A stretch of DNA of 64,000 bases from Heterodontus francisci (taxonomy: Eukaryota), in the NCBI RefSeq assembly GCF_036365525.1, contig NC_090413.1, positions 26,102,142-26,166,141 of the forward strand, read 5' to 3'. The notes below the pieces were generated by a model, which saw only the letters and a program-made list of their open reading frames with translations, had not been told where the DNA came from and searched no databases. Both the position numbers and the translations under genes were made by a program. Of this stretch, positions 3,863 through 46,640 are shown in pieces. Each line of letters opens with the position of its first letter. Within the stretch, counting starts at the first letter, position 1.

Positions 3863-5214
3863 TGTCTGTGTTCTCAGTCAGGGAGTGGCTGGCGGGGGGG
3901 GGGGGGAACTATAATTAGTCTCAACTGCCCCAAGCCAGGAAAATTAAAAAGAGAAATCTACCAGAGTTGCTGCTTCTGATATTTGTCCAGAAAGCGCACA
4001 TGCGAGACCAGGACAGGGCACGTTGGTGATGGCTACTGCAGTGGAATACCCTGCTGTCTGGGCTTGCGCGTGAAGAATGGCCATTTTGGGGAGATAGTCA
4101 GGACATTCGGGGGAAGAAATGGGGAGAAGGTCAGACAAAAATAAAATCTTCAGTGGGGACAGACGTTGGAGAAACATAATGATGGATAAAGCAGCTGATT
4201 AAGTGAGATCACAGGCCCACTCCCACCTCACCTTATCTGAATTGAAATGGAAGCTACAGACACGGTCAGTCAGACCGTCCATACAAAGAAAAGGGGTAAA
4301 TCACATCACAGAAAATATCACGTCAGTGGACAATCACCCGTTACCCTCCCCATTTCAATCAGACTAAAACGTTGACTCCAGTTGGGCTATAGTTTCCTCA
4401 GTCACACACTACCCTACGGGACGGACGCCAGCTTTTACCATACAGTGATGAGTGAACTATCTCACTTGTGGACTACCTGCAGAGCTCAGGCAATGAGATC
4501 CGATTTGGTCTTTCTATCCTTAGCCCTATGGCACTGAGGTCAATTGGAGCACTCCTAACAACCCCCCAGCTGTAATCAGGCACTCAAAGGGTTAAGTTAT
4601 GAGCACAGGTTGGTTAGATTAGGCTTGCGTACCCTTGAGTAAAGTTGATTAAGGGGTGATCTAATTGAGGTGTTTAAGATGGCTAAAAGATTTGACAGGG
4701 CAGATAGAGAGAAACTGTTTACTCTGGTGGGGGCAAAACCTTAAAATTAGAGCCAGGCTGTTCAAGGGAGATGTCAGGAAGCACTTCTTCATACAGAGGG
4801 AAGTGGGAATCTGCAACTCTCTCCCTTCATAAAGATATTGAGGCGGTGGGGGGGGTGCGGTCAACTGAAAATTTCTAAAATAAGATGAATAAATTTTGGT
4901 TGGGCAAGGGTATGAAGGGTTACGGAACAAAGGCAGTCATGATCTAACTGAAAGGCAGAACAGGCTGGAGGGGCTGAATGGCCCCTGCTTGTTCCTATGA
5001 TCAGTTATCTCAGTGCAAACCAGGGACTGAAATCGGGACTCTGCTGATCGTAACTACTCATTGAGACAAACTCTCTGAGCCATTTGGGAGGGTGGGTGGG
5101 TGAGGTGAGGCAGAATATTTCAATACCTATTTCACTGATGTTCACTATTACTTAACCAATATTCACCAGGCTGGACACGGCTACAGGAGAGGTGATAGAA
5201 ACATTTGCACTTAC

Positions 5215-5418
5215 CTGAGACATCTGAGGTCGCAGGTTGATCTCCTTAAGGTTGATAGAGTGTGGTCGGAGATTGTTGAGAAGCTGACAGAGGAGAACGC
5301 CATCTCGCAGAGCCCAGGCTAAGTCACAGACCTGAGCATTGTCCCAAGTCACTCTGTGATTAGGGGGCAACACTTTACAGTCAATCAGCCAGTTGGCACA
5401 TTGTCTCCAATGCTCCAT
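5215..5418 (-). CDS. vav1: VAV-family guanine nucleotide exchange factor, coding exon 1 (start of CH domain); most likely VAV1
   Basis: ATG at 5418 gives [68 protein letters not shown], then donor CAG|GTAAGT. 204 nt, matching the known VAV exon 1 boundary (..RPQMSQ|). QVC resembles VAV1, but VAV3 is not excluded. The rest of the gene lies left of the window. Confidence 0.85.
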
Positions 5419-10885: not shown

Positions 10886-11291
10886 CCTATGTGAGGCATT
10901 CAGCTGTCTGTGTCTGCTTAATGTACAGCTCTGGGTGCTGACACAATGACAACATTGGGAATCACTTACACTTCTAGTTTATTCACCGATTGCCCAATGT
11001 TGTGTCCCACCCCTTACATCTCGAGTTGGCTGATTGTTCAGCCCTTAAAAACAATGCTTTCTTCTGATTGGATTCCTTTTTATTTATGCTCACTTGGGTG
11101 CGTCTCAGTGACATCACAGGGCAGGAATTCCCTGTTTATAAATGATTGAAAGCAGCCAACGAACACTGTGGCTGTGTTAGTGTTTGAAGAACTGCGTGAA
11201 AAATAAAGCTGAACTCATTCAGCCAAGAGCTTGGCATTTTTGATTTATTGTCGAGCTCAATATTTTTCAAAAGGACACCCTGGCGACCAGA

Positions 11292-11414
11292 ATGAGTGAT
11301 TTGAAGTCCTGGATGTTTGATCTCAACATGACAAAAACAATCAGCGTGTCCACTGGTAATGTGGTGAAGTGGTGTGCCTCTATGAAGACATGTCCAGTGT
11401 CGACAGATCAAGAG
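11292..11414 (+). CDS. gclm-like: GCLM-like (glutamate-cysteine ligase modifier subunit-like) exon 1
   Basis: MSDLKSWMFDLNMTKTISVSTGNVVKWCASMKTCPVSTDQE|gtagta. Aligns to the GCLM N-terminus (TLHLQTGNLLNWGRLRKKCPSTHSEE). 123 nt, phase 0. Confidence 0.8.
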
Positions 11415-11626
11415 GTAGTATGTTACCTGTGGTCACCATAATGCAAACTGTTGGACCTAGTGTTCTGGAGGGATGAGATTAGATAGGCTGAAGAGTCTTT
11501 TTATTTCATAATTGTCCTTTTTAAATAGAATGTACAGTCATTTAGTGCAAGCAACTGGTGTTTATGTTCTACCTGGCCCTCCTCCCAATCTCACCCTGCC
11601 CTTCTATTCCTTTCCTAGAGTCATAG

Positions 11627-11950
11627 AGAGAGAGAGATACAACACTGAAACAGGACCTTCAGCCACCGAGTCTGTGCCAACCATCAACCACCCATTTATA
11701 CTAATCCTACATTAATCCCATATTCCCTACCATGCCTCAATTCTCCTACCACCTACCTGCACTAGGGGCAATTTACAATGGCCAATTTACCTATCAACCT
11801 GCAAGTCTTTGGCTGTAGGAGGAAACCAGAGCATCCAGTGGAAACCCACGCGGTCACAGGGAGAACTCGCAAACTCCACACAGGCAGTACCCAAAACTGA
11901 ACCCGGGTCACTGGAGCTGAGAGGCTGCGGTGCTAACCACTGCGCCACTC
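11627..11950 (-). mobile_element. HE1-type V-SINE
   Basis: tRNA-like head (gtggcgcagtggttagcac), V-domain (gtgtggagtttgc.agttctccc) and CR1-like tail, all on the minus strand. Confidence 0.85.
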
Positions 11951-13625
11951 GATAAAGCTTTTCCTTAAATGCATCTATGCTAGTCACCTCAACCACTCCC
12001 TGTAGCTGTGAGCTGGGTTGTCCTGTGCTGCAGTGTAGTGGTTATATAACTGGATGAATATATGTCACGGGAGACTAATTAAACTTTAGTTTTGATACTA
12101 ACAAGTGGTGGAGGAATGTTGGAGAGTAAAGGAATGATGTTGAAATTCTTTATGTTTTAGTCAGGATGTCGTTACCAGTGCAGGGTAATTGTATGGTACA
12201 ATGATCGCAAGGTTTTTAATACATTAAATCCAATAAAAATAAATAAAAAATTACTAGATGAGTAATCATGAACTAAACATCCAGAGAACATGAGTTCAAG
12301 TCACATTGTGGCAGATTGAAAATTTGAATTTAGTTTTCCAAAAACTCTAGAAATAAAAATCTGGTTTCAGTGATGATGAAGTTGAAAGGTTGTTGCAGAA
12401 AGTCAAATTGTTCACCAACTTTTTTTAGGGCAGGAAACCTTAACTTGACTCCACACCTATGTGATTGACTCTTAACTGCCCTCTGAAGTGGCCTAGCAAG
12501 CCGCAGTTGTATCAGATGAACAAAAAAATGCCAGCCTTGCCAGTGACTCACTGCAGGGGAATGAATAAATGAGTGAATGAACGATGGTGGGAGATGTTGA
12601 AGTAGCTCTGGGCGTGACAGGCGGGGACCTGAACCATTGCCAAGGAGATTGTATCCTTGTCTCCTCAGCCACAGGTTTGGGCTTGTAGTTCCCCAGATGT
12701 TGGATGGCTGATCTTAAGGTGTGGTTTGCTGCTGACAACCTATTCTTGCACAACTTGCAGCAAAGCTGCCGGATGAATTTTTGTCAGAGAAGGGTAAGAC
12801 AGGCCCAAAGATAGAGCAAAGGTTCAGCTGCTTAAATCTGGTGAATGTGTTGGAGCCACAGGCACAACAGCATGGAGCTGGAGGTTTCTAAAAGATTCAA
12901 CTTTGCAAGAAAGAGGCAGTTATGAGGATGGGATGACTGGAGTTTGGTGCAGTGATAGCTGATATCTGCGACACTTGTTCAACTACAGGGGTGAGAGTTA
13001 GAGTGACATCCCCTGAGGCCACAATGCTCTGACCTGCACTCACTTTGAGTGAGGTTCCCTACTTGGGGTGAGATCAGTAAAACTGCCCCATAGTGTAAAT
13101 GTGTGTGCGTATATGTAGTATATAGTACATGTTCATGCAGAACGTCTGTGTGAATATATTACATAGTCCATCTATATAAATTGAAACTGTGAAATATAGG
13201 TTTGACCATTAGTTCTATGGAATGACCAATTGACATATACTGGGTGGAACCAAGATTTGTGGAATGGCCAAAATATCATCTTGGACTCAGATTCCTCAGC
13301 TATCTTACCCACCTTGTTGTTATCAATCACACCTCTGGAATTCCCTCCCTAAACCTCACTGAGTCTCTACCTCTCTTTCAGACTCTCCTTAAAACCTACC
13401 TCTTTGACCAAGCCTTTGGTCATCTGCCCTAATAACTCCTGATGTGGCTCAGTGTCCAGTTGTGTCTGATAACGCTCCTGTGAAGTAACCTGGGACATTA
13501 AAGGTGCCGTATAAATGCAGGTTGTTGTTGCTACTCTACTGACCCATCTCCCTAGCAGGTAGATGAACTGTTACTTCAGTGCACTAGGGGCCCATTGAAA
13601 TTAAACCCATCTGATTTGTTTTAAG

Positions 13626-13697
13626 GTTCTGTATTGCATCAAAGCCGCTTTGGTCGAATGGGCTTCCAGGTTCCAACCCGATCAGGCTGAAGTGAAT
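13626..13697 (+). CDS. gclm-like: GCLM-like exon 2
   Basis: tttaag|VLYCIKAALVEWASRFQPDQAE(VN). Aligns to LHDCIQKTLNEWSSQINPDLVR. Two in-frame donors: after 13691 (gtgaat) and after 13697 (gtaagt). Confidence 0.8.
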
Positions 13698-14402
13698 GTA
13701 AGTGTTTATCCTCGGTTGCTGTATGACTGAAATCCGTCTCAACTCAGCATCAATCTCTTCTTGCTCATTTCCCCTCCGTGTCCTTGACTGTTTCCTTGTG
13801 TACGTTTTTTCTAAATCCACCAGCACAAAAAACTGTATCTAAAACACTTAATCTGCTTGTGATGTAGGTGGGAGGAGTGCTTGTAATTCATGCCACCATC
13901 TTCCCATCCCGGAAGTACACGGCAGACATATTGAATTCGGTCAGACTCTATCTGAAAACCAGTGAATTCCAAATCCTTCTCCTGTTCTTCTGGGGAAGTC
14001 TCATAATATGTCCCTGAATGGTATAGTCCCTCTAGGAATGTTCTTTTATTAATATCTGAATGTTTTGTGCTCGTTACCTCGGGAAATTTGGACCCTTCTA
14101 TTTTGGGGAATCACAGGATCAAACACTCCCAGATCAGCATCAGCTGTGGACAGCTACAACTACAGTGTGGGTCGATGCAGCATGTGGGGCCATGTAGCCG
14201 GGAGTACCTGTTCTTGGTCGCAGGATTTTATTGTGTCTCTGATCTCCAGTAATGTTGGAATGGGGAGGCTGAAGGTGGGAATTCAAAGATTTACCCACTA
14301 AAACACTTGCATCTCTTTACCAATTAGGCTGCTGGTCCACTTAACATTCGTTTAATTAAGAACGCTAATTTTTTTTTTTTCTCTCCTGACTAATCCTGCC
14401 AG

Positions 14403-14487
14403 GGATTACCCCAGCATCTGGTTTGTAATCTTGTTCAGGATACTGAGAGGATTGGGCCTAATGAAAGAGAGGATATCAGGATATCGG
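14403..14487 (+). CDS. gclm-like: GCLM-like exon 3
   Basis: Polypyrimidine tract + ccag|GLPQHLVCNLVQDTERIGPNEREDIRIS|gtaggt. 85 nt; aligns to EFPDVLECTVSHAVEKINPDEREEMKVS. Confidence 0.85.
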
Positions 14488-15983
14488 GTAGGTGAACTCC
14501 TAGGGAGGGATGTTTTTATACAGTCAGTGGTTGGTTAATAAAGTGCTGTTATTGTCATGGATGAAATGGACACCACATTCTCTGAGCCAATCACTGAGTG
14601 AGGGCAAAAGGTAAGGTCATCAATCCTGTACTCCCAGGAGGAGTGACACTAGCAGGCAAGAAGTGGAGCTGGTGATTCCCCATTCCCCATCACCAACCTG
14701 CTCTCCTTTCAATTGGATGTGTGCGTGAGTGGGTAAATATTTATAGGCCAGTACAGATTTTCCTGTACAGTTTACAGTTAACTTCATTCAGACCTGGGAG
14801 ATTCAATCAGGGTTGAATTTTCGGGCCCTACCGGAATGGAGGAGGGCGGGGCATCCAGTGTGCTGGTTTCCCAAAACCATTCCCAGCGCCGGCCACTCTT
14901 GCGGAGGCGGGATTGGGTCCTTGCCCCAAACGGTCGGTAGCCAAGCCTAATTGAGGCCAATTAAAGGAGGCCAACTGGGATTTTCCAGTCGGTCTCCAGT
15001 TTCCTTCACCACGGGGGCCAGTTTCGGTGCCTGGAGGCAGGGCAGGAGGACCTCTCTGCCTGCCTGGGTGCAGGAGCAACCACAGGCCACCCAGTAGAGG
15101 GGCTCCCTCCTACCGACCCCAGCTCTGTACCTATTTTTAATTGAAGATGCAAAAAAGTGGAGGAAGGGTGCTTCCACATTGAAGAACCCTCTCTGTTACT
15201 TACCTTCCATTACAGCCTCTGATTGGCCCTCCAGCTTCGAGATCTCGTCAATTAAGAAGGCATCCCATGAAAATCCCAGGTCAGTGGCTGTTCCCCCCCT
15301 CCCAGGAGTGAGCTCGGGACCCAGAAACAGTTCCGATTACTGTTTCCCGCCTCCAGTGGGAAACTCCAGCCCCATTTGTTACTCTATTATAACACTGTAC
15401 TGCCGGCTGGTCCTATTCTAAGGCAGGTACTGGTCTCCCATCAGTACAACTAGGGGAAGAATAGCTGCTTCCTTAATAAGTGTGTATGACCTGTCAAGCT
15501 TCACAGAGAGACAGGGACAGACTGGGATAGGGAGGGAACAGTTAAACCGTGAATTTTTTTAAAATACCACCGCTGTATGTATAGTGTTTTAGTTTACGAG
15601 GCAAGGAATAATTCAACAATAATTTGCATTTATATAGCACCTTTAATATAGTAAACCATCTCAAGGCACTTCGCAGGAGCGATGTCAAACAAACTTTGGC
15701 ACGAAGCCACATAAGGAGATGTTAGGACACGGAGGTCAGCTTTAAGGAGGGTCTTAAAGGAGGAGAGAGAAAGGGGAAGAGGGTTAGGGAGAGAATTCTA
15801 GAGCTTAGGGCCTAAGCAGCTGAAGGCACGACTGCCAGTGGTGGAGCGCTTAAAATTGGGAATGCACAAGAGGTGGGAATTGGAGGTTGGAGAGAGTTTT
15901 CAAGCTGGAGCATATTTCAGAGATAGGGATCTGTTTTAATTCATACTTCCTTCTTCCTGACCTCCTTTTCTTCCCTCCCACAG

Positions 15984-16040
15984 TCAAACTGTTCATCTGT
16001 AGATTTGACACTGCAATCGTTAAAGAGGCTGTGACGAGAG
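15984..16040 (+). CDS. gclm-like: GCLM-like exon 4
   Basis: cccacag|(V)KLFICRFDTAIVKEAVTR|gtatgt. 57 nt, phase 1-1; aligns to AKLFIVESNSSSSTRSAVDM. Confidence 0.85.
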
Positions 16041-17007
16041 GTATGTAGAGACTACCCAACTGGTGGAACTGCAAGGGATTAAACAACTTCTCTCTCACTA
16101 CTTTATAGACAGGGGCCCTCAATGCTATTGAAATTGCAACAGAGTTTGTTTTGAGATTGAGGTGTCTTGAAATATTGAGAGACCATCCACAGATTCTGCT
16201 TCCTCACACTGCAGGATTCAGTTGCGATTCATCCAGAAATTGGCTCTGGGGTGCTGCAGACAGAGTCGACAGGGTCAGGGCAATATTTCTTCAGCTTCAT
16301 TTCGGATTGGAGCACGTCATTCAGGCTGCCACCCCAGTGCAGTGCTGAGGGAGTGCTGCAGTGCTGCGGCTGCTGCCTTTTCCAATGAGGTGTTAACTCG
16401 AGGCCCCCCCTCCACATGTTCCAGAGCCTCAGGTGGCTGTGGGAGATCCGGTGGCAGCATTTGAAGGCGAGCCAGAAGCTGCCCGTGTTCCCCTGGCCAG
16501 TGTTCATCCCTCAGAACTGCCAAAAAAACGGATTCACTGGCCATTTAGTGCAGTGCTGTTTGTGGGATCTTGCTGTGCGCACATGGGTTGCCGCATTTGC
16601 CTAGGCTGTGAAGTGCTGTGGATCGGCCTGAGGGTTTGAAAGGTTCAACATAAAGTTCTTCCTTTCAAAATAGTAAACCTATAGAGTTCTTCCTGAAACC
16701 ATTAACTTTGGGTGCCATCACTCAGCTTTCAAGGTTCTCGCCGAAGAGTGCAACTCGTAAATCTTTCCCTCGTCCCATGACCTTGTAGTGCCTTCAATGC
16801 TGTGTGCTCGCTAAATGACAGGCATCCATAAAGCTTCTCCTGCACCATCTCCGATGGATGCTCCTGTAACTCAGTCTTGTGCAGTCATTGGTGGATACTT
16901 ACTCATGGACCTCCTCCTGTATCAATGATAGGTATTCAATCGAAGAGATCCTCATCTACCATCAGTGAATGGTGCTCATCTATAGACCTTTTCATGTACA
17001 TCAACGA

Positions 17008-18030
17008 TTTTTTTTTAATTTCCAAAATATACTTTATTCATAAAATCTGTAAAAAATACATTACAAAACAGTTCCAAAAAGCACAAAGTCAAACAATACA
17101 AAGAGTGCAAAGGAGATCAGTTTCCCTCAATACAGGAGTGAGTTGCCTCACCACCCTTCCATTTCATTTGACATGCCATGTACATTTTACAGCAAACAAA
17201 TATTTTCTGGATACAGTTCGAGGGGTTTTCCATGGGTCCAGCCCCTCAGTTCAGCTTGGTGGAGGACCTTACACTGTGGCCTTTCCCCATTGAGTCTTTG
17301 CTGCGGCTGCCCCAAGCTTTAGTGCGTCCCTCAGCACGTAGTCCTGGACCTTGGAATGTGCCAATCTGCAGCATTTTGTCGTGGACAACTCTTTGCGCTG
17401 GAAGACCAGCAAGATTCGGGCAGACCAAAGGGCGTCTTTCACCGAATTGATAGTCCTCCAGCAGCAGTTGATGTTTGTCTCGGTGTGCGTCCCTGGGAAC
17501 AGCCCGTAGAGCACAGACTCCTGTGTTACAGAGCTGCTTGGGATGAACCTCGACAAAAACCGCTGCATCTCTTTCCACACCTGCTTTGCAAAGACACATT
17601 CCGGAAGGAGGTGGGCAACCGTCCCTTCCCCACCACAGCCACCTCGAGGGCATTGTGCAGAGGGTGTGAGACTCCGGGCGTGCAGGAAGGATCTGACGGG
17701 GAGGGCCCTTCTCACCACCAGCCAAGCTATATCTTGGTGCTTGTTTGAAAGTTCTGGTGATGTGGCATTCCGCCAAATGACTTTGGCAGTCTGCTCAGGG
17801 AACCATCCGACCAGATCCACCATCTCCTTTTCCCGTAGGGCCTTGCAGACCACTGCCTGATGGTTTGATGGTCAAAGGTGTTTTTCCGTCGAAACTTTTC
17901 CACGAAGGATTGGTGGTACGGCGCGGACCAACTGGATGGAGCGTTCTGAGGCAATGTGACCAGACCCATCCTTCGCAACACTGGGTACAGATAGAACCTC
18001 AGCGCGTGGTGACACTTGGAGTTTGCGTAC
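17008..18030 (-). mobile_element. Tx1-clade-like LINE 3' end in GCLM-like intron 4
   Basis: Minus ORF 17269-17853 with a zf-RVT-like motif (WLVVRRALPVRSFLH..CPRGGCG..TVAHLL.EC.FAKQVW) and a poly(A) tail at about 17008. A related older fragment lies at about 7808-8050. Confidence 0.75.
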
Positions 18031-18188
18031 GATCAATTTTTACTGGGAGCCTTTGTCCTGTACTTGCCCTAGAGTTAATCCCTTTCCCATTGTACCTATG
18101 TTGGACAACCACATCCCAGTCCACTGTCATTCTGTCATATGTCAGGAAGCACAGCTTTAAGAGACATGTTTTCTCCTTTCAATTGCAG

Positions 18189-18391
18189 CCTGTGTGGATC
18201 TTGGGGTAACTCAGCTGGATTCTGTAATCCTCGCTGTTGCTCCATTGCCAGGGGGACAACATCCAACTCTGGAGGACCTGAAGCCTTATTGGAAGGAGCT
18301 GGAGATATTGGTCCAAGACCAGAAGATTGCATCAATAGGAGTTTCAGACTTGGACCAGAAAATGCTGGAGGCTCTTTGCCAACACGCACAG
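18189..18391 (+). CDS. gclm-like: GCLM-like exon 5
   Basis: ttgcag|(A)CVDLGVTQLDSVILAVAPLPGGQHPTLEDLKPYWKELEILVQDQKIASIGVSDLDQKMLEALCQHAQ|gtgtgc. 203 nt; clear GCLM aldo-keto-reductase-fold match. Confidence 0.92.
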
Positions 18392-18832
18392 GTGTGCTTT
18401 CCCCATCTTCTCTTTGCTACTCTTTCCCCTGAAATCTTGCTGAGTATTGCAGCTATCTGGCTCCTTACCCAGGTGGATGCATTCCATCACACATGGGTAT
18501 CTCCTGTCCCTACAGTGTCAGCTGTAGCTCACTGGGCAGCACCCTTTCCTTCTGACTCAAAAGGGTGCAGGTTCGAGTCCCAGTCCAGAGACTTAAGCAC
18601 TAAACGTAGACTGACACTCCCAGTGCAGTACTGAGGGAGTACTCCACTATTGGACGTCCGGTCTTTCAGATGAGACATTAAACCAAGACCCCATCTGCTC
18701 TCTCAGGTGGATGTGAAATATCCAATGGGACGATCAAAAGAAGAGCAGGAGAGTTCTTCCCAGTATCCTGGCCAATATTTATCCCTCAGTCAACAGCATT
18801 GAAACAGATTATCTGGCTACTATCACATTGCT

Positions 18833-21662
18833 TGGATTAGTACCTGGGAGTATGATGTTATTGCTATTACTGAGACTTGGTTGAGGGAAGGGCATGATTG
18901 GCAACTAAATATCGCAGGTTATCGATGCTTCAGGCGGGATAGAGAGGGAGGTAAAAGGGGTGGAGGAGTTGCATTACTGGTCAAAGAGGATATCACAGCT
19001 GTGCTGAAGGAGGGCACTATGGAGGACTCGAGCAGTGAGGCAATATGGGCAGAACTCAGAAATAGGAAGGGTGCGGTAACAATGTTGGGGCTGTACTACA
19101 GGCCTCCCAACAGCGAGCGTGAGATAGAGGTACAAATATGTAAACAGATTATGGAAAGATGTAGGAGCAACAGGGTGGTGGTGATAGGAGATTTTAATTT
19201 TCCCAACATTGACTGGGATTCACTTAGTGTTAGAGGTCTAGATGGAGCAGAATTTGTAAGGAGCATCCAGGAGGGTTTTCTAGAGCAGTATGTAAATAGT
19301 CCAACTCGGGAAGGGGCCATACTGGACCTGGTGTTGGGGAATGAGCCCGGCCAGGCGGTTGAAGTTTCAGTAGGGGACTACTTTGGGAATAGTGATCACA
19401 ATTCCGTAAGTTTTAGAATACTCATGGACAAAGACGAGAGTGGTCCTAAAGGAAGAGTGCTAAATTGGGGGAAGGCCAACTATACCAAAATTCGGCAGGA
19501 GCTGGGGAATGTAGATTGGGAGCAGCTCTTTGAAGGTAAATCCACATTTGATATGTGGGAGGCTTTTAAAGAGAGGTTGATTAGCGTGCAGGAGAGACAT
19601 GTTCCTGTGAAAATGAGGGATAGAAATGGCAAGATTAGGGAACCATGGATGACAGGTGAAATTGTGAGACTAGCTAAGAGGAAAAAGGAAGCATACATAA
19701 GGTCTAGGAGGCTGAAGAAAGACGAAGCTTTGAAAGAATATCGGGAATGTAGGACCAATCTGAAACGAGGAATTAAGAGGGCTAAAAGGGGTCATGAAAT
19801 ATCTTTAGCAAACAGGGTTAAGGAAAATCCCAAAGCCTTTTATTCATATATAAGGAGCAAGAGGGTAACTAGAGAAAGGATTGGCCCACTCAAGGACAAA
19901 GGAGGAAAGTTATGCGTGGAGTCAGAGAAAATGGGTGAGATTTTAAACGAATACTTTGCATCGGTATTCACCGAGGAGAGGGGCATGACGGATGTTGAGG
20001 TTAGGGACAGATGTTTGATTACTCTAGGTCAAGTCGGCATAAGGAGGGAGGAAGTGTTGGGTATTCTAAAAGGCATTAAGGTGGACAAGTCCCCAGGTCT
20101 GGATGGGATCTATCCCAGGTTACTGAGGGAAGCGAGAGAGGAAATAGCTGGGGCCTTAACAGATATCTTTGCAGCATCCTTAAACACGGGTGAGGTCCCG
20201 GAGGACTGGAGAATTGCTTTTGTTGTCCCCTTGTTTAAGAAGGGTAGCAGGAAAAATCCAGGTAATTATAGACCGGTGAGCCTGACGTCAGTGGTAGGGA
20301 AGCTGCTGGAGAAGATACTGAGGGATAGGATCTATTCCCATTTGGAAGACAATGAGCTTATCAGTGATAGGCAACATGGTTTTGTGCAGGGAAGGTCATG
20401 TCTTACCAACTTAATAGAATTCTTTGAGGAATTGACAAAGTTGATTGATGAGGGAAGGGCTGTAGATGTCATATACATGGACTTCAGTAAGACGTTTGAT
20501 AAGGTTCCCCATGGTAGGCTGATGGAGAAAGTGAAGTCGCATGGGGTCCAGGGTGTACTAGCTAGATGGATAAAGAACTGGCTGGGCAACAGGAGAGTAG
20601 TAGTGGAAGGGAGTTTCTCAAAATGGAGACGTGTGACCAGTGGTGTTCCACAGGGTTCCGTGCTGGGACCACTGTTGTTTGTGATATACATAAATGATTT
20701 GGAGGAAAGTATAGGTGGTCTGATTAGCAAGTTTGCAGACGACACTAAGATTGGTGGAGTAGCAGATAGTGAAGGGGACTGTCAGAGAATACAGCAGAAT
20801 ATAGATAGATTGGAGAGTTGGCCAGAGAAATGGCAGATGGAGTTCAATCAGGGCAAATGCGAGGTGATGCATTTTGGAAGATCCAATTCAAGAGTGAACT
20901 ATACAGTAAATGGAAAAGTCCTGGGGAAAATTGATGTACAGAGAGATTTGGGTGTTCAGGTCCATTGTTCCCTGAAGGTGGCAACGCAGGTCAATAGAGT
21001 GGTCAAGAAGGCATATGGCATGCTTTCCTTCATCGGACGGGGTATTGAGTACAAGAGTTGGCAGGTCATGTTACAGTTGTATAAGACTTTGGTTTGGCCA
21101 CATTTGGAATACTGCGTGCAGTTCTGGTCGCCACATTACCAAAAGGATGGGGATGCTTTGGAGAGGGTGCAGAGGAGGTTCACCAGGATGTTGCCTGGTA
21201 TGGAGGGCGCTAGCTATGAAGAGAGGTTGAGTAGATTAGGATTATTTTCATTAGAAAGACGGAGGTTGAGGGGGGACCTGATTGAGGTATACAAAGTCAT
21301 GAGAGGAAAAGACAGGGTGGATAGCAAGAAGCTTTTTCCCAGAGTGGGGGATTCAATTACTAGGGGTCACGAGTTCAAAGTGAGAGGGGAAAAGTTTAGG
21401 GGGGATATGCGTGGAAAGTTCTTTACGCAGAGGGTGGTGGGTGCCTGGAACGCGTTGCCAGCGGAGGTGGTAGACGCGGGCACGATAGTTTCTTTTAAGA
21501 TGTATCTAGACAGATACATGAATGGGCAGGAAGCAAAGAGATACAGACCCTTAGAAAATAGGCGACATGTTTAGATAGAGGATCTGGATCGGCGCAGGCT
21601 TGGAGGGCCGAAGGGCCTGTTCCTGTGCTGTAATTTTCTTTGTTCTTTGTTCTTTGTTCTTG
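18833..21662 (+). mobile_element. Young CR1/HER1 LINE with uninterrupted ORF2 (APE + RT), in GCLM-like intron 5
   Basis: 897-aa ORF with GDFN, SDH, PQGSVLGP and FADD; (TTCTTTG)n tail. Splits a DeuSINE-like element (..cacattgct|LINE|gtttctgggagcttgc). Confidence 0.95.
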
Positions 21663-22161
21663 TTGTTTCTGGGAGCTTGCTGCAATTCCTAAATTAAACA
21701 GTAGGATTACAGAATCAGGAACTGAGCCATGCAGATCAGGGTACTCCAGAATCAATTCCTGAGTTAGCTGATCTTCAGATCAAGCTGTAATGTTGGCTCC
21801 ATTGCCAACACAAGGTTAAAATCAAGCTGGGCTTCGGCTCCTGAACACTGGGAATGGTGCTTTTGGGTGGATGTGGGGTTCAATTGGGACTGGGATTCAA
21901 TGCGATGCACCCTGCAGTTGAATAGCGCAGCAATGTTCACTGTCTTGAGTCCCACATGAAGAGTGGCCGCCCGAAGCAGTTTCCAAAGGGTTGAAGTCAC
22001 CAGCTGCATCGAATCTGACTTCACTCCTTGCCGTCAGGAAAGGAGGGAAGAAATTTGGAGAGAAGGAGTAAATAAGTGCGAAAGAAAGCAAATAGGACAT
22101 GAAGCTAAATGATTTTGGCTGCCTCTTGTGCCTGTTTGAACCAATGTACTCTTACTCACAG

Positions 22162-22276
22162 GTCCCACCGAGCAGTAACCAAGTGAATCTGTCCTCCTGC
22201 TGTGTAATACCACCTGACCTCACCGCCTTTGCTAATGAGAACAACATTCAACTGCTGACACATAATGACCCCCCAG
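22162..22276 (+). CDS. gclm-like: GCLM-like exon 6
   Basis: cacag|VPPSSNQVNLSSCCVIPPDLTAFANENNIQLLTHNDPP|gtaaat. 115 nt; GCLM signature NQVNL.SCCV.PPDL..FA....IQLLTHNDP. Confidence 0.95.
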
Positions 22277-23307
22277 GTAAATTACCCTTTACTGTCCCAT
22301 TTTCTGTAAATTCCCTCTGGCCGCATCCTTGTAAATTGTCAGACATGTTCTGGTTTGCTGATTTGCCATTAGGGGTACAAATAACCAGTCAGCTTGGTAC
22401 ACTGGGTAGCACGATTGACTGTGCATCAGAGGTCTTGGGCTCAAATCCCATTGCACACTTGACAGCACATGGCCGAGGCCTGCTATCTCAGCGCTGAGGG
22501 ATTGGTGCAGTATCAGGGTTGCTGCCTCTGAGATGGGATGTTAAACTGACTCCGAAACTGCTGCTTCAAGTGGCTGTACAAAACCATCTGGCATGATTCA
22601 AAGACCAGCGAGTTGTCCCAACCAATATCCTCCCTCAGCCAACACCACCAAAAACAGATTCACCGTGCCATTCATCAACCTGAGATTGGCGTTTTCCCAC
22701 GTTTCTGCTCGCCAGCTGGAGATTTCCCTGTGCCAAGGCAGGACCTGGGTTGTTTGAACATATTCCTGGAGGTTTAATCACAAGACCTCCCGCCTCCATC
22801 CATTTTACCCCCACACTCCCACCATTGATCACCCAACTTGCCCATCCCCGCGGTGCCCCGCCTTCCCACAGCCAATCAGAAACCGAATAATCTCTCCGTT
22901 TCCCGATTGGATGATTCAGGATTGTTGGTCAAGTGCCTTTTCTTTCCCATGTTCAATATTTTTATAAATAGAAAACAAAAGCGTTCATCGAAATTTTTTG
23001 GAAACACGACTTTTTAATTGCCTCTTTGATTTTTATCCTGGGATTGCTCACAGCAGTGTTCTGGAAGTTAATGTTTAATTCCAGGAAACTCCAGGGCAAT
23101 CCTGGAGAGTTGACAACCATAACCAGGACCTGTTTACATTGAGAATTCCCATTATAACAGATTGCACAGTCATGCTGAATGTTGACATTAAAAAAAATGA
23201 CCAAAAATCCCGAAAGCAGAATAGTGAAGCTTGGGGACAGGAAAAGCTATGAACAAAAGATTTTGAAACGTGACCGTCGCTTTATTAAGGTGGTCTTCCC
23301 TTTCCAG

Positions 23308-23477
23308 ATATCCTTCCGGTGGGATCTTTCCAGGAAGCCCTCAGTACCAGTCTGCAGGACCCTCATGCCCATGAGTGGGCACCACAGTGGCTCCTTCGAT
23401 ACTCAGCAATCATTAAGCACAGAGGAGTCATCAAGTCGAAAGGTTACATGCTCCATGCAGTGAGACAAGTAGAGTGA
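23308..23477 (+). CDS. gclm-like: GCLM-like exon 7 (terminal)
   Basis: ttccag|(D)ILPVGSFQEALSTSLQDPHAHEWAPQWLLRYSAIIKHRGVIKSKGYMLHAVRQVE*. Matches the GCLM C-terminus; TGA at 23475-23477. Confidence 0.93.
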
Positions 23478-23670
23478 CATTACTGAGTCTACATCAAGCT
23501 GCAACAACTGCCGTTGCTTTCTTTCTGCTGTCTAGTTCTGACTCACCTGAGTTCAGAGAGGTTTACAATGGGGAGATTTAAACTATGGTTAGGGTTAGTC
23601 TTGAAACTACCCTATACAGTTACAAAAGTGTCATGCGACTTGTTTATCACAAGGATGCATGGTAGCAACC

Positions 23671-23676
23671 AATAAA
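23671..23676 (+). terminator. Candidate polyadenylation signal of the GCLM-like gene
   Basis: AATAAA about 195 nt after the stop, followed by a GT-rich stretch (attgtttgttcctttggtatgtg). Confidence 0.55.
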
Positions 23677-23788
23677 GCTTATCACTGCTGTAATATTGTT
23701 TGTTCCTTTGGTATGTGAACGATTGTAAGATTCACAGGACTACAAATAATGTCCAAACAATATGTGGGTTTTTATTATAACTTAACTA

Positions 23789-36168: not shown

Positions 36169-36320
36169 CTGCTCCATCGCATTGTTGATCTCTGCAAGTT
36201 GATAACCCATTGACTGGCAGGATTCATTTGCCCTGTGCCAGTCCAAATGATTTGACGAAAAGTCATAGCATTTTCCATTAAAGAATTGCCCCTTTCCAGG
36301 GCACTTTCCAGCAGAGACTC
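36169..36320 (-). CDS. C-type lectin domain exon 1
   Basis: ctctgcag|VSAGKCPGKGQFFNGKCYDFSSNHLDWHRANESCQSMGYQLAEINNAMEQ|gtacaa. 152 nt; CP..F..KCY.F....W..A...C...G..LA.I....EQ pattern. Confidence 0.92.
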
Positions 36321-43386: not shown

Positions 43387-43728
43387 CTGAAAGATGACAT
43401 CAGATTACGTTGTTATCCTTTGTGAATGTACTACATGGATTTGCATCTTAGTATGGGAATGAGGGAGTGCTACACTGCCAGAGGTGCTGTGTTTCAGGTA
43501 GGATGCTAAACCAAGGCTCAGTTGGTAGTATCCTTGCCTCTGAGTGAGAAGTCCCACTCCTGGACTCGAGCGCAAAAAAAAATCAAAGCTGACACTCTAT
43601 TCCAGGACTGAAGGAGTGCTACACTGTCAGAGCTGCCGTCTTTTGTATGAGAAATTAAACCGAGGCCCCGTCTGCCCTCTCAGGTGGAATAAAAGATCCT
43701 ATGGCACTATTTTGAAGACAAGCGGCAG

Positions 43729-46640
43729 GATGTTGAGAGTAGTGAGGTCAGGGATAAGGTTACAAGGACGCAAGAGGGCACTGGCAAGCAAGAACCTGGT
43801 TTAAAGTGTGTCTACTTCAACGCCAGGAGCATCCGGAATAAGGTGGGTGAGCTTGCAGCATGGGTTGGTACCTGGGATCTCGATGTAGTGGCCATTTCGG
43901 AGACATGGGTAGAGCAGGGACAGGAATGGATGTTGCAGGTTCCGGGATTTAGATGTTTCAGTAAGAACAGAGAAGATGGTAAAATAGGGGGGGGTGTGGC
44001 ATTGTTAATCAAGGAGAGTATTACAGCGACAGAAAGGACGTTTGAGGACTCGTCTACTGAGGTAGTATGGGCCGAGGTTAGAAACAGGAGAGGTGAGGTC
44101 ACCCTGTTGGGAGTCTTTTTTAGACCTCCGAATAGTTCCAGAGATGTAGAGGAAAGGATAGCGAAGATGATTCTTGACAGGGGTGAGAGTAACAGGGTAG
44201 TTGTGATGGGGGACTTTAACTTTCCAAATATTGACTGGAAATACTATAGTTCGAGTACTTTAGATGGGTCAGTTTTTGTCCAGTGTGTGCAGGAGGGTTT
44301 TCTGACACGGTATGTAGACAGGCCAACCAGGGGCGATGCCACATTGGATTTGGTACTGGGTAATGAACCCGGCCAGGTGTTAGATTTAGATGTAGGTGAG
44401 CACTTTGGTGATAGTGATCACAATTCGGTTAGGTTTACCTTAGCGATGGGCAGGGACAGGTATATACCGCAGGGCAAGAATTATAGCTGGGGGAAAGGAA
44501 ATTATGATGCGATTAGGCAAGATTTAGGATGCGTAGGATGGGGAAGGAAACTGCAGGGGATGGGAACAATTGAAATGTGGAGTTTATTCAAGGAGCAGCT
44601 ACTGCGTGTCCTTGATAAGTATGTACCTGTCAGGCAGGGAGGAAGTTGTCGAGTGAGGGAGCCGTGGTTTACTAAAGAAGTTGAAGCGCTTGTCAAGAGG
44701 AAGAAGAAGGCTTATGTTAGGATGAGACGTGAAGGCTCAGTTAGGGCGCTTGAGAGCTACAAGCTAGCCAGGAAGGATCTAAAGGGAGAGCTAAGAAGAG
44801 CAAGGAGAGGACACGAGAAGTCATTGGCGGATAGGATCAGGGAAAACCCTAAGGCTTTCTATAGGTATATCAGGAATAAAAGAATGACTAGAGTTAGATT
44901 AGGGCCAATCAAGGATAGTAGTGGGAAGTTGTGTGTGGAATCAGAGGAGATAGGGGAAGCGTTAAATGAATATTTTGCATCAGTATTTACAGTAGAGAAA
45001 GAAAATGTTGTCGAGGAGAATACTGAGATTTAGGCTACTAGGCTAGATGGGATTGAGGTTCAAAAGGAGGAGGTGTTAGCAATTTTGGAAAGTGTGAAAA
45101 TAGATAAGTCCCCTGGGCCAGATGGGATTTATCCTAGGATTCTCTGGGAAGCTAGGGAGGAGATTGCAGAGCCTTTGTCCTTGATCTTTATGTCGTCATT
45201 GTCGACAGGAATAGTGCCGGAAGACTGGAGGATAGCAAATGTTGTCCCCTTGTTCAAGAAGGGGAGTAGAGACAGCCCTGGTAATTATAGACCTGTGAGC
45301 CTTACTTCGGTTCTGGGTAAAATGTTGGAAAAGGTTATAAGAGACAGGATTTATAATCATCTAGAAAAGAATAAGTCCATTAGCGATAGTCAGCACAGTT
45401 TTGTGAAGGGTAGGTCGTGCCTCACAAACCTTATTGAGTTTTTCGAGAAGGTGACCAAACAGGTGGATGAGGGTAAAGCCGTGGATGTGGTGTATATGGA
45501 TTTCAGTAAGGCGTTTGATAAGGTTCCCCACGGTAGGCTATTGCAGAAAATTCGGAAGTATTGGGTTGAAGGTGATTTAGAGCTTTGGATCAGAAATTGG
45601 CTAGCTGAAAGAAGACAGAGGGTGGTGGTTGATGGCAAATGTTCATCCAGGAGTTTAGTTACTAGTGGTGTACCGCAAGGATCTGTTTTGGGGCCACTGC
45701 TGTTTGTCATTTTTATAAATGACCTGGAAGAGGGTGTAGAAGGGTGGGTTAGTAAATTTGCGGATGACACGAAGGTCGGTGGAGTTGTGGATAGTGCCGA
45801 AGGATGTTGTAGGGTACAGAGGGACATAGATAGGCTGCAGAGCTGGGCTGAGAGATGGCAAATGGAGTTTAATGCGGAAAAGTGTGAGGTGATTCACTTT
45901 GGAAGGAGTAACAGGAATGCAGAGTACTGGGCTAATGGGAAGATTCTTGGTAGTGTAGATGAACAGAGAGATCTTGGTGTCCAGGTACATAAATCCCTGA
46001 AGGTTGCTACCCAGGTTAATAGGGCTGTTAAGAAGGCATATGGTGTGTTAGCTTTTATTAGTAGGGGGATCGAGTTTCGGAGCCACGAGGTCATGCTGCA
46101 GCTGTACAAAACTCTGGTGAGACCGCACCTGGAGTATTGCGTGCAGTTCTGGTCACCGCATTATAGGAAGGATGTGGAAGCTTTGGAAAGGGTGCAGAGG
46201 AGATTTACTAGGATGTTGCCTGGTATGGAGGGAAGGTCTTACGAGGAAAGGCTGAGGGACTTGAGGTTGTTTTCGTTGGAGAGAAGGAGGAGGAGAGGTG
46301 ACTTAATAGAGACATATAAGATAATCAGAGGGTTAGATAGGGTGGATAGTGAGAGTCTTTTTCCTCGGATGGTGATGGCAAACACGAGGGGACATAGCTT
46401 TAAGTTGAGGGGGTGATAGATATAGGACAGATGTCAGAGGTAGTTTCTTTACTCAGAGAGTAGTAGGGGTGTGGAACGCCCTGCCTGCAACAGTAGTAGA
46501 CTCGCCAACTTTAAGGGCATTTAAGTGGTCATTGGATAGACATATGGATGAAAATGGAATAGTGTAGGTCAGATGGTTTCACAGGTCGGCGCAACATCGA
46601 GGGCCGAAGGGCCTGTACTGCGCTGTAATGTTCTAATTCT
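43729..46640 (+). mobile_element. CR1/HER1 LINE with complete ORF2 region (one nonsense codon, one late frameshift)
   Basis: Starts LKCVYFNARSIRNK. ORFs 43843-45033 and 45073-46416 are in the same frame, separated by TAG. Boundaries are defined by the empty site in the duplicate copy at about 49509. Confidence 0.95.

Follow-up and report, generated by a model that had tools for sequence, protein, structure and literature searches.

Glutamate-cysteine ligase (GCL) sets cellular glutathione levels and its regulatory subunit, GCLM, is to our knowledge generally treated as single-copy, leaving aside the later genome-doubling duplicates of teleosts, salmonids and frogs. Here we describe a second, hidden member of this family, designated GCLM2, which is encoded in a 64,000-nucleotide stretch of the genome of the shark Heterodontus francisci (hereafter the window; contig NC_090413.1, or C43, at 26.102-26.166 Mb; C43 measures 31.9 Mb and the genome 6.0 Gb). 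GCLM2 is a real, conserved paralogue and an addition to the known GCLM family; it is almost certainly expressed and very probably originated by whole-genome duplication (WGD). It also appears reasonably likely that this WGD-derived ohnologue still binds the single GCLC, as a non-catalytic alternative to the usual regulatory subunit. The canonical gene is referred to below as GCLM1 or canonical GCLM.

The coding region comprises seven exons (Table 1) which, spliced by coordinate, give a product of 272 or 274 amino acids (aa) with no internal stops; every intron has GT-AG ends, and the phases run 0,0,1,1,0,1. Exon 2 was the single candidate between 11415 and 14400 to pass a filter of 60-75 nt, an open frame and the presence of C[IVL] and W. 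The 274-aa form is identical to RefSeq protein P0002 of Heterodontus francisci, and exon 5 matches at 100% two NCBI proteins of the same species named "glutamate--cysteine ligase regulatory subunit-like". The seven in-frame exons, GT-AG sites and product length that an earlier note had proposed from the letters of the window are thus borne out. A processed pseudogene or retrocopy is ruled out by the six introns and the open frame.

Exon 5 is present in ten runs of three studies, none of them recorded as RNA, and the contigs of four of these runs (X1, X3, X7, and X8) were compared with the gene model. A 1182-nt contig of X1 covers 11151-11412, 18187-18386, and 23304-23671 with zero mismatches, and the offsets of its pieces leave room for 214 nt (equal to 72+85+57) from exon 1 to exon 5 and for 115 nt from exon 5 to exon 7. 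The offsets of a 1239-nt contig of X3 are the same, X7 supports the 115-nt gap from exon 5 to exon 7, and X8 contributes a 528-nt piece across exon 5. The 214-nt offset means that the form seen is the one with the 72-nt exon 2. Splicing is read here by arithmetic on the offsets of the contig pieces, the joints themselves lying outside the rows displayed, and contig depth cannot rank expression or assign tissue. Searches of the genome with GCLM2 and canonical GCLM queries turned up no intron-less GCLM2 copy; given the intron-less contigs, spliced mRNA is therefore the simplest reading, and the transcript for which the earlier note had proposed a check is supported to that extent. At least four coding differences from the window were displayed for organism B (two synonymous, one Glu-to-Asp and one stop-loss, assigned by hand).

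In the window the GCLM2 stop is followed by an in-frame His-Tyr-stop (23475-23486). Position 23477 is C in three runs of organism B, so that the first stop is lost and Cys-His-Tyr is appended; His-Tyr is also the C-terminal end of canonical shark GCLM and of skate GCLM2. The earlier stop of Heterodontus francisci may be recent.

GCLM exons were found at two loci, C43 and C8:24.638-24.659 Mb (queries exon 5, P0002, and canonical shark GCLM), a count that is a lower bound as the best candidates alone were scored. In the C8 gene the exons measure 135/66/85/57/203/115/170 nt, and its six intron positions and phases are those of GCLM2, in agreement with the GCLM phases attributed to the window gene at the outset; duplication therefore took place at the DNA level and not by retrocopying. 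The two proteins agree at 134/270 aligned residues. Identity of GCLM2 to a canonical shark GCLM is 32% in exons 1-4 and 60% in exons 5-7, the pattern of a diverged N-terminal half that had been noticed previously. Synonymous sites are saturated between the two paralogues (pS 0.75) and dN/dS between them is therefore unusable. GCLC (PF03074) gave 10 matches, all in one locus on C3.

That the gene in the window is simply the shark orthologue of GCLM, as its automatic name "regulatory subunit-like" and its exon structure might suggest, is hardly credible. The C8 gene sits on a short branch among the GCLM1 of other sharks and occupies an FNBP1L-BCAR3-DNTTIP2 context, which rules out the plain orthologue and shows that GCLM2 is not the sole GCLM of this genome. 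The order on C8 is an F-BAR/SH3 gene (+), a BCAR3-like gene (-), DNTTIP2 (Fcf2 domain, -), GCLM (-), and a TECR-like gene (+); FNBP1L-BCAR3-DNTTIP2-GCLM is presumably also the order at human 1p22. The TECR-like gene (C8 ~24.71-24.74 Mb) lies directly upstream of canonical GCLM and has paralogues that are 82% (C43) and 48% (C4) identical to it.

A search with P0002 at an E cutoff of 1e-30 gave 322 proteins, and among the 120 listed the top 15 stand at 58-100% identity, followed by a drop to ~52%; an index-free protein search listed the best 150 of 747 matches. When 308 fetched proteins were scored against GCLM1 and GCLM2 profiles, 32 were clearly GCLM2 (margin at least 138 bits; the next, 30). 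All named proteins on the GCLM2 side are from elasmobranchs (16 species) and most records are full length. The sharks include Heterodontus, Heptranchias, Pristiophorus, Rhincodon, Stegostoma, Hemiscyllium, and two Chiloscyllium, and the batoids Pristis, Hemitrygon, Narcine, two Mobula, Rhinoraja, Amblyraja, and Leucoraja. Elasmobranch RefSeq and UniRef entries named "regulatory subunit-like" (P0002, P0004, P0005, P0007, P0010-P0015, P0290-P0292, P0305) correspond to GCLM2 and its orthologues. No GCLM2 of a bony vertebrate, chimaera or hagfish occurs among the 308 fetched proteins, and the gene was likely lost in bony vertebrates. Among the matches listed, catshark and Callorhinchus are represented by GCLM1 only and no catshark or lamnid GCLM2 appears, though catshark GCLM1 does; secondary loss and missing annotation are both possible explanations of this gap. 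The earlier note had envisaged loss in mammals and retention in cartilaginous fish. In protein searches the absence is wider, taking in all bony vertebrates and Callorhinchus, and the evidence of retention narrower, covering elasmobranchs and not all cartilaginous fish.

Maximum-likelihood (ML) trees with amphioxus, tunicate and echinoderm outgroups were built from 47 rows, one of them an incomplete hagfish sequence that carried a warning for unusual composition, and from 33 rows (17 of the 47 dropped, 3 added). GCLM2 forms a clade with support of 99/100 and 100/100, respectively, and its sister group in both trees consists of a hagfish-cluster sequence together with every jawed-vertebrate GCLM1; it falls, therefore, outside the canonical vertebrate GCLMs, a grouping which the earlier note had named as the test of its proposal. 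The vertebrate node received 95/92 and 87/91 in the two trees, chimaera and elasmobranch GCLM1 group at 100/99, and the hagfish-cluster sequence joins GCLM1 with moderate support (83/79). The topology of both trees would fit a duplication later than the invertebrate-chordate split and earlier than the parting of sharks and bony fish. Approximately unbiased (AU) tests on the 33-row set reject a duplication restricted to elasmobranchs (p=0.0018) and do not reject a topology of the second round of WGD (2R) with hagfish outside both copies (p=0.23).

The genomic surroundings provide the other line of evidence on the origin of GCLM2. Five further families have members on both C8 and C43: VAV, F-BAR, BCAR3/SH2D3, TECR-like, and prostanoid receptor. 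This points to an ohnologue derived from WGD, the families being a hand-picked set of neighbours and not a genome-wide count set against a null model. The BCAR3/SH2D3 family is found at C8 24.36, C43 24.54, and C32 14.64 Mb, F-BAR genes at C8 24.19, C43 24.61, and C32 14.38 Mb (3/11 FCH matches), and TECR-like genes at C8 24.74 and C43 12.97 Mb as well as on C4; prostanoid receptor paralogues occur on C43, C8 (twice), C36, and weakly C32. The arrangement of the SH2D3 and F-BAR genes is convergent on both C43 and C8. The start codons of GCLM2 and the neighbouring VAV gene lie 5.9 kb apart, head-to-head. Three VAV genes are present in the genome (C43, C32, and C8), and the C43 copy appears to be VAV1, as had been assumed. 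This is the best supported assignment, partly by exclusion: its SH2 exon gives 49.4 bits against VAV1 as compared with 30.9 against VAV2, VAV3 chains being absent from the list, its N-SH3 exon matches VAV1 chains only, and its exon 1 is ambiguous (120.8 vs 119.1 bits, VAV1 vs VAV3).

The earlier note had also placed SH2D3A and TRIP10 on either side of VAV1 by reference to the human map. These genes do reside on the same shark chromosome, but they are not adjacent to VAV1, being ~1.5 Mb away, and no GCLM remnant was found in the 200 kb around SH2D3A/TRIP10 on C43. The human order, which we take to be TRIP10-SH2D3A-VAV1, together with the shark arrangement suggests an ancestral order VAV1, GCLM2, SH2D3A, TRIP10 that mirrors GCLM, BCAR3, FNBP1L.

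The round of WGD is a separate matter. C43, like C8, has paralogues on C32 and C36, a weak fit to a 2R pair; SLC27A pairs C43 with C32 and has no match on C8. Chicken chromosomes 17 and 8 are given as a 1-2 pair of CLGM (Simakov et al., PMC7269912 supplement), and GGA28 and GGA30 are reported to be fused chromosomes, shared fusions marking 2R pairs (Huang et al., PMC10013865). The ohnologue proposed by the earlier note is thus supported by paralogous chromosomes and trees; its assignment to 2R in particular is not, the first round (1R) and 2R both being allowed for the split between GCLM2 and GCLM1.

A number of observations weigh against a WGD origin. The local order is not kept on C43, with SH2D3A and TRIP10 1.5 Mb from GCLM2, and the absence of the gene from bony vertebrates, which implies its loss there, rests on protein collections and not on genome scans. 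The node joining jawed-vertebrate GCLM1 is moderate and not starred (92/77, 89/91). In one and the same shark-ray pair GCLM2 keeps 65% identity and GCLM1 90%; GCLM2 is the faster-evolving copy, its low position in the tree may owe something to long-branch attraction, and the tree tool warns of long branches. Amphioxus agrees with one of the two copies at 14 fixed differences, with GCLM1 at 10 and with GCLM2 at 4, so GCLM2 is the more derived copy. A duplication in the chondrichthyan stem is only borderline in the AU test (33-row set), where the grouping of GCLM2 with chondrichthyan GCLM1 is not rejected (p=0.0502). Segmental duplication or transposition on the stem lineage of cartilaginous fish, followed by fast divergence and with the paralogous chromosome hit by chance, would also account for a gene found, in the protein collections, in elasmobranchs only, and for immediate neighbours that differ between the two loci, and would require no loss in bony vertebrates. 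We nevertheless consider it improbable: GCLM2 lies outside all jawed-vertebrate GCLM1 in both ML trees, the 32-Mb chromosome that carries it has paralogues of genes from both sides of GCLM1, and D219 and I196 are common to GCLM2 and amphioxus against all GCLM1.

Identity between GCLM2 and the named GCLMs of vertebrates is 48-56%, with E from 1e-73 to 1e-84. The whole protein matches Pfam PF00248, with no match for any of the six single exons tried, and its Atlas feature matches to GCLM clusters are 0.97-0.98. The AlphaFold2 model (mean pLDDT 86.9) has AKR-type reductases as its top fold matches (AKR, aldo-keto reductase; Foldseek E ~4e-7, TM-score ~0.4); no GCLM structure was found in a PDB search. 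The best AKR in PDB, AKR4C9, gives a weak and partial sequence match (E 1.5e-6). The catalytic tetrad of these enzymes is Asp-Tyr-Lys-His, the His of the "DLYLIHWP" motif being catalytic. In GCLM2 Lys95 is kept, Ala128 occupies the position of that His, and the N-terminal Asp/Tyr region is unaligned; no reductase activity is therefore expected, and the incomplete tetrad speaks against a catalytic aldo-keto reductase.

Conservation within GCLM2 follows that of GCLM1. Residues conserved at 90% or more in GCLM2 fall in 90/132 of the columns that are near-invariant in GCLM1 vs 39/140 other columns (Fisher p=3e-11), and column conservation of the two proteins is correlated (Spearman 0.47, 272 columns), which indicates purifying selection. 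Human numbering, transferred via a bat sequence and in agreement with eight published human positions, locates Cys114, Cys193, and Cys194 in 12/12 aligned GCLM2. In the human protein C193/194A is reported to fail to restore GSH in cells (PMC11696352) and C114 is described as an allosteric site (bioRxiv 2023.05.18.541312). Six human GCLM segments are predicted to contact GCLC in an AlphaFold2 model (PMC12097128 Supplementary Table 6). GCLM2 is identical to GCLM1 at 77% in segment 122-127, 88% in 187-198, 95% in 209-216, and 75% in 249-264, as compared with 41% outside the segments. Taken together, the five C-terminal segments show 88% identity within GCLM2 vs 63% elsewhere, and 77% to GCLM1 vs 41% elsewhere.

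GCLM is reported to be the limiting subunit for GCL holoenzyme formation and to raise the catalytic efficiency of GCLC, with a lower Km and a higher kcat for glutamate (PMC11051666). Judging from residue conservation, GCLM2 probably still modulates GCLC. It would compete with GCLM1 for the one GCLC as an alternative modifier subunit, docking by way of its conserved C-terminal segments and the loop that holds Cys193/194; once docked, it would raise the efficiency of GCLC with glutamate in a GCLM-like manner. The remodelled segment 24-44 could confer a different affinity, strength or regulation, and a CpG-poor promoter might favour more tissue-restricted use. In the 500 nt 5' of the start codon, CpG observed/expected is 0.30 at 43% GC for GCLM2 vs 0.70 at 58% for GCLM1, the canonical promoter being CpG-richer and of GC-box type. 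A TATA-like word occurs at ~11137 in the CpG-poor region upstream of GCLM2. Antioxidant response element (ARE)-like words number four in the 3.5 kb upstream of GCLM2 and one upstream of GCLM1, a count made with no control and not used as evidence. More tentatively, elasmobranchs may form two GCL holoenzymes from one GCLC, the ~500-million-year-old GCLM2 being swapped in per tissue to set a different glutathione ceiling or act as a damper via its remodelled N-terminal contact. Such control of glutathione synthesis by subunit exchange, if true, was not found in the literature searched.

Not all of the protein fits a GCLM-like role. Identity to GCLM1 is as low as 31% in segment 24-44, the largest of the predicted contacts, and only 50% in segment 84-93; Trp178, kept in 13/13 GCLM1, in hagfish and in 4/5 invertebrates, is lost in 12/12 GCLM2; and the list of GCLC contacts is itself a prediction taken from another paper. 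GCLM2 of the same ancient origin could thus have changed its role, binding GCLC without activation as a competing damper or serving another partner, an option we regard as unlikely but worth serious consideration. Besides Trp178 and the faster rate, it is favoured by the presence of two modifiers for one GCLC and by the remodelling of the N-terminal segment (N26R in 11/12 and L30S in 12/12). Human GCLM is reported to have a GCLC-independent nuclear role and a nuclear-import signal at 4-36 (PMC11696352). This signal is overlapped by segment 24-44, where GCLM2 has 2-4 basic residues vs 3-5 in GCLM1 and the signal appears changed, not clearly lost. Also on record is a 231-aa database isoform of Heterodontus francisci (P0001) which is reproduced from the window sequence by skipping of exon 6 and a frameshift and would be without Cys193/194, and Mobula has a similar 228-aa frameshifted form (P0127, P0286); the exon-6-skipping form was not seen among the contig pieces displayed. 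On the other hand, the constraint on GCLM2 is concentrated on the predicted GCLC-contact segments and its three functional cysteines are invariant, in keeping with the alternative regulatory subunit preferred here. A relaxed copy drifting toward a pseudogene might be suspected from the faster evolution and from the lack of catshark and lamnid members among the matches listed, which hints at lineage losses; this is very improbable for a gene with mostly full-length records in 16 named species of sharks and batoids, strong site-specific constraint and spliced contigs.

To the right of GCLM2, C43 carries a lectin-like gene and genes that we take to be RASAL3 (a RasGAP), PGLYRP2 (amidase), SLC27A1 (acyl-CoA synthetase), PGLS (phosphogluconolactonase), a VCP paralogue (p97-type ATPase), and PTGER1 (prostanoid receptor), most of them presumably at 19p13 in human. 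The VCP/p97 gene (C43 ~26.32-26.35 Mb, +) is a second, multi-exon copy whose tested exon is 92% identical to the copy at C1:86.33 Mb, possibly another retained ohnologue. Candidate exons of the lectin-like gene, which would encode a type II membrane protein resembling C-type lectins, are scattered over the minus strand of the window (~34989-56899, e.g., 36169-36318); Pfam gave a sub-threshold A33R match only. In addition to the presumed LINE-type retrotransposon of intron 5 (Table 1), a second LINE-type open frame occupies 43693-46416 (446 + 460 aa with one stop between); these long open frames suggest recent insertions.

Table 1. Coordinates of GCLM2 and other features in the window.
Feature	Position	Strand	Remarks
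GCLM2 5' untranslated region	11130..11291	+	contig cover begins at 11151 (X1) and 11130 (X3); start site not fixed by contigs
GCLM2 coding exon 1	11292..11414	+	123 nt; remodelled N-terminal basic segment; covered by contigs of X1 and X3
GCLM2 exon 2	13626..13697	+	72 nt, or 66 nt with an alternative donor after 13691
GCLM2 exon 3	14403..14487	+	85 nt
GCLM2 exon 4	15984..16040	+	57 nt
GCLM2 exon 5	18189..18391	+	203 nt; codon frame from 18191; contains equivalent of human Cys114
GCLM2 exon 6	22162..22276	+	115 nt; Cys193/Cys194 motif
GCLM2 exon 7, coding part including stop codon	23308..23477	+	170 nt
GCLM2 3' untranslated region	23478..23729	+	AATAAA at 23671; contig ends at 23671, 23693, and 23729
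First coding exon (CH domain) of VAV gene, best read as VAV1	5212..5418	-	head-to-head with GCLM2; gene extends left beyond the window
Presumed LINE-type retrotransposon in intron 5 of GCLM2	18803..21574	+	923-aa open frame; outside the mRNA model

GCLM2 is already present in RefSeq, under an automatic name only. No published description of a second GCLM in cartilaginous fish, as a distinct paralogue or ohnologue, was found in a search at the level of listings, with most subscription journals outside its scope; ohnologue tables of shark genomes may list the gene. Where "gclm" expression is studied in sharks and rays, the two genes can be mixed up. As a natural paralogue with its predicted C-terminal contact surface kept and its N-terminal segment swapped, GCLM2 offers ready material for chimeras that would locate the part of GCLM that activates GCLC.

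Skate and shark genomes are reported to retain ancestral chromosomes (PMC10115646) and small 2R chromosomes to keep fewer genes (PMC7269912, PMC10013865). As a probable ohnologue retained by elasmobranchs and likely lost from bony vertebrates, GCLM2 would follow a general pattern known from cartilaginous fish, in this case for a core metabolic regulator; the phenomenon is a familiar one, which limits the surprise. In comparison with vertebrate GCLM, GCLM2 has in common the seven exons and their phases, the PF00248 domain, ~50% identity, Cys114/193/194, and the motifs QVNLxSCC, IQLLTHND, and RYSxIxKxRGxIKSKG, and differs in its own clade and chromosome, the changed LxKK basic segment and Trp178, faster evolution and a CpG-poor promoter.

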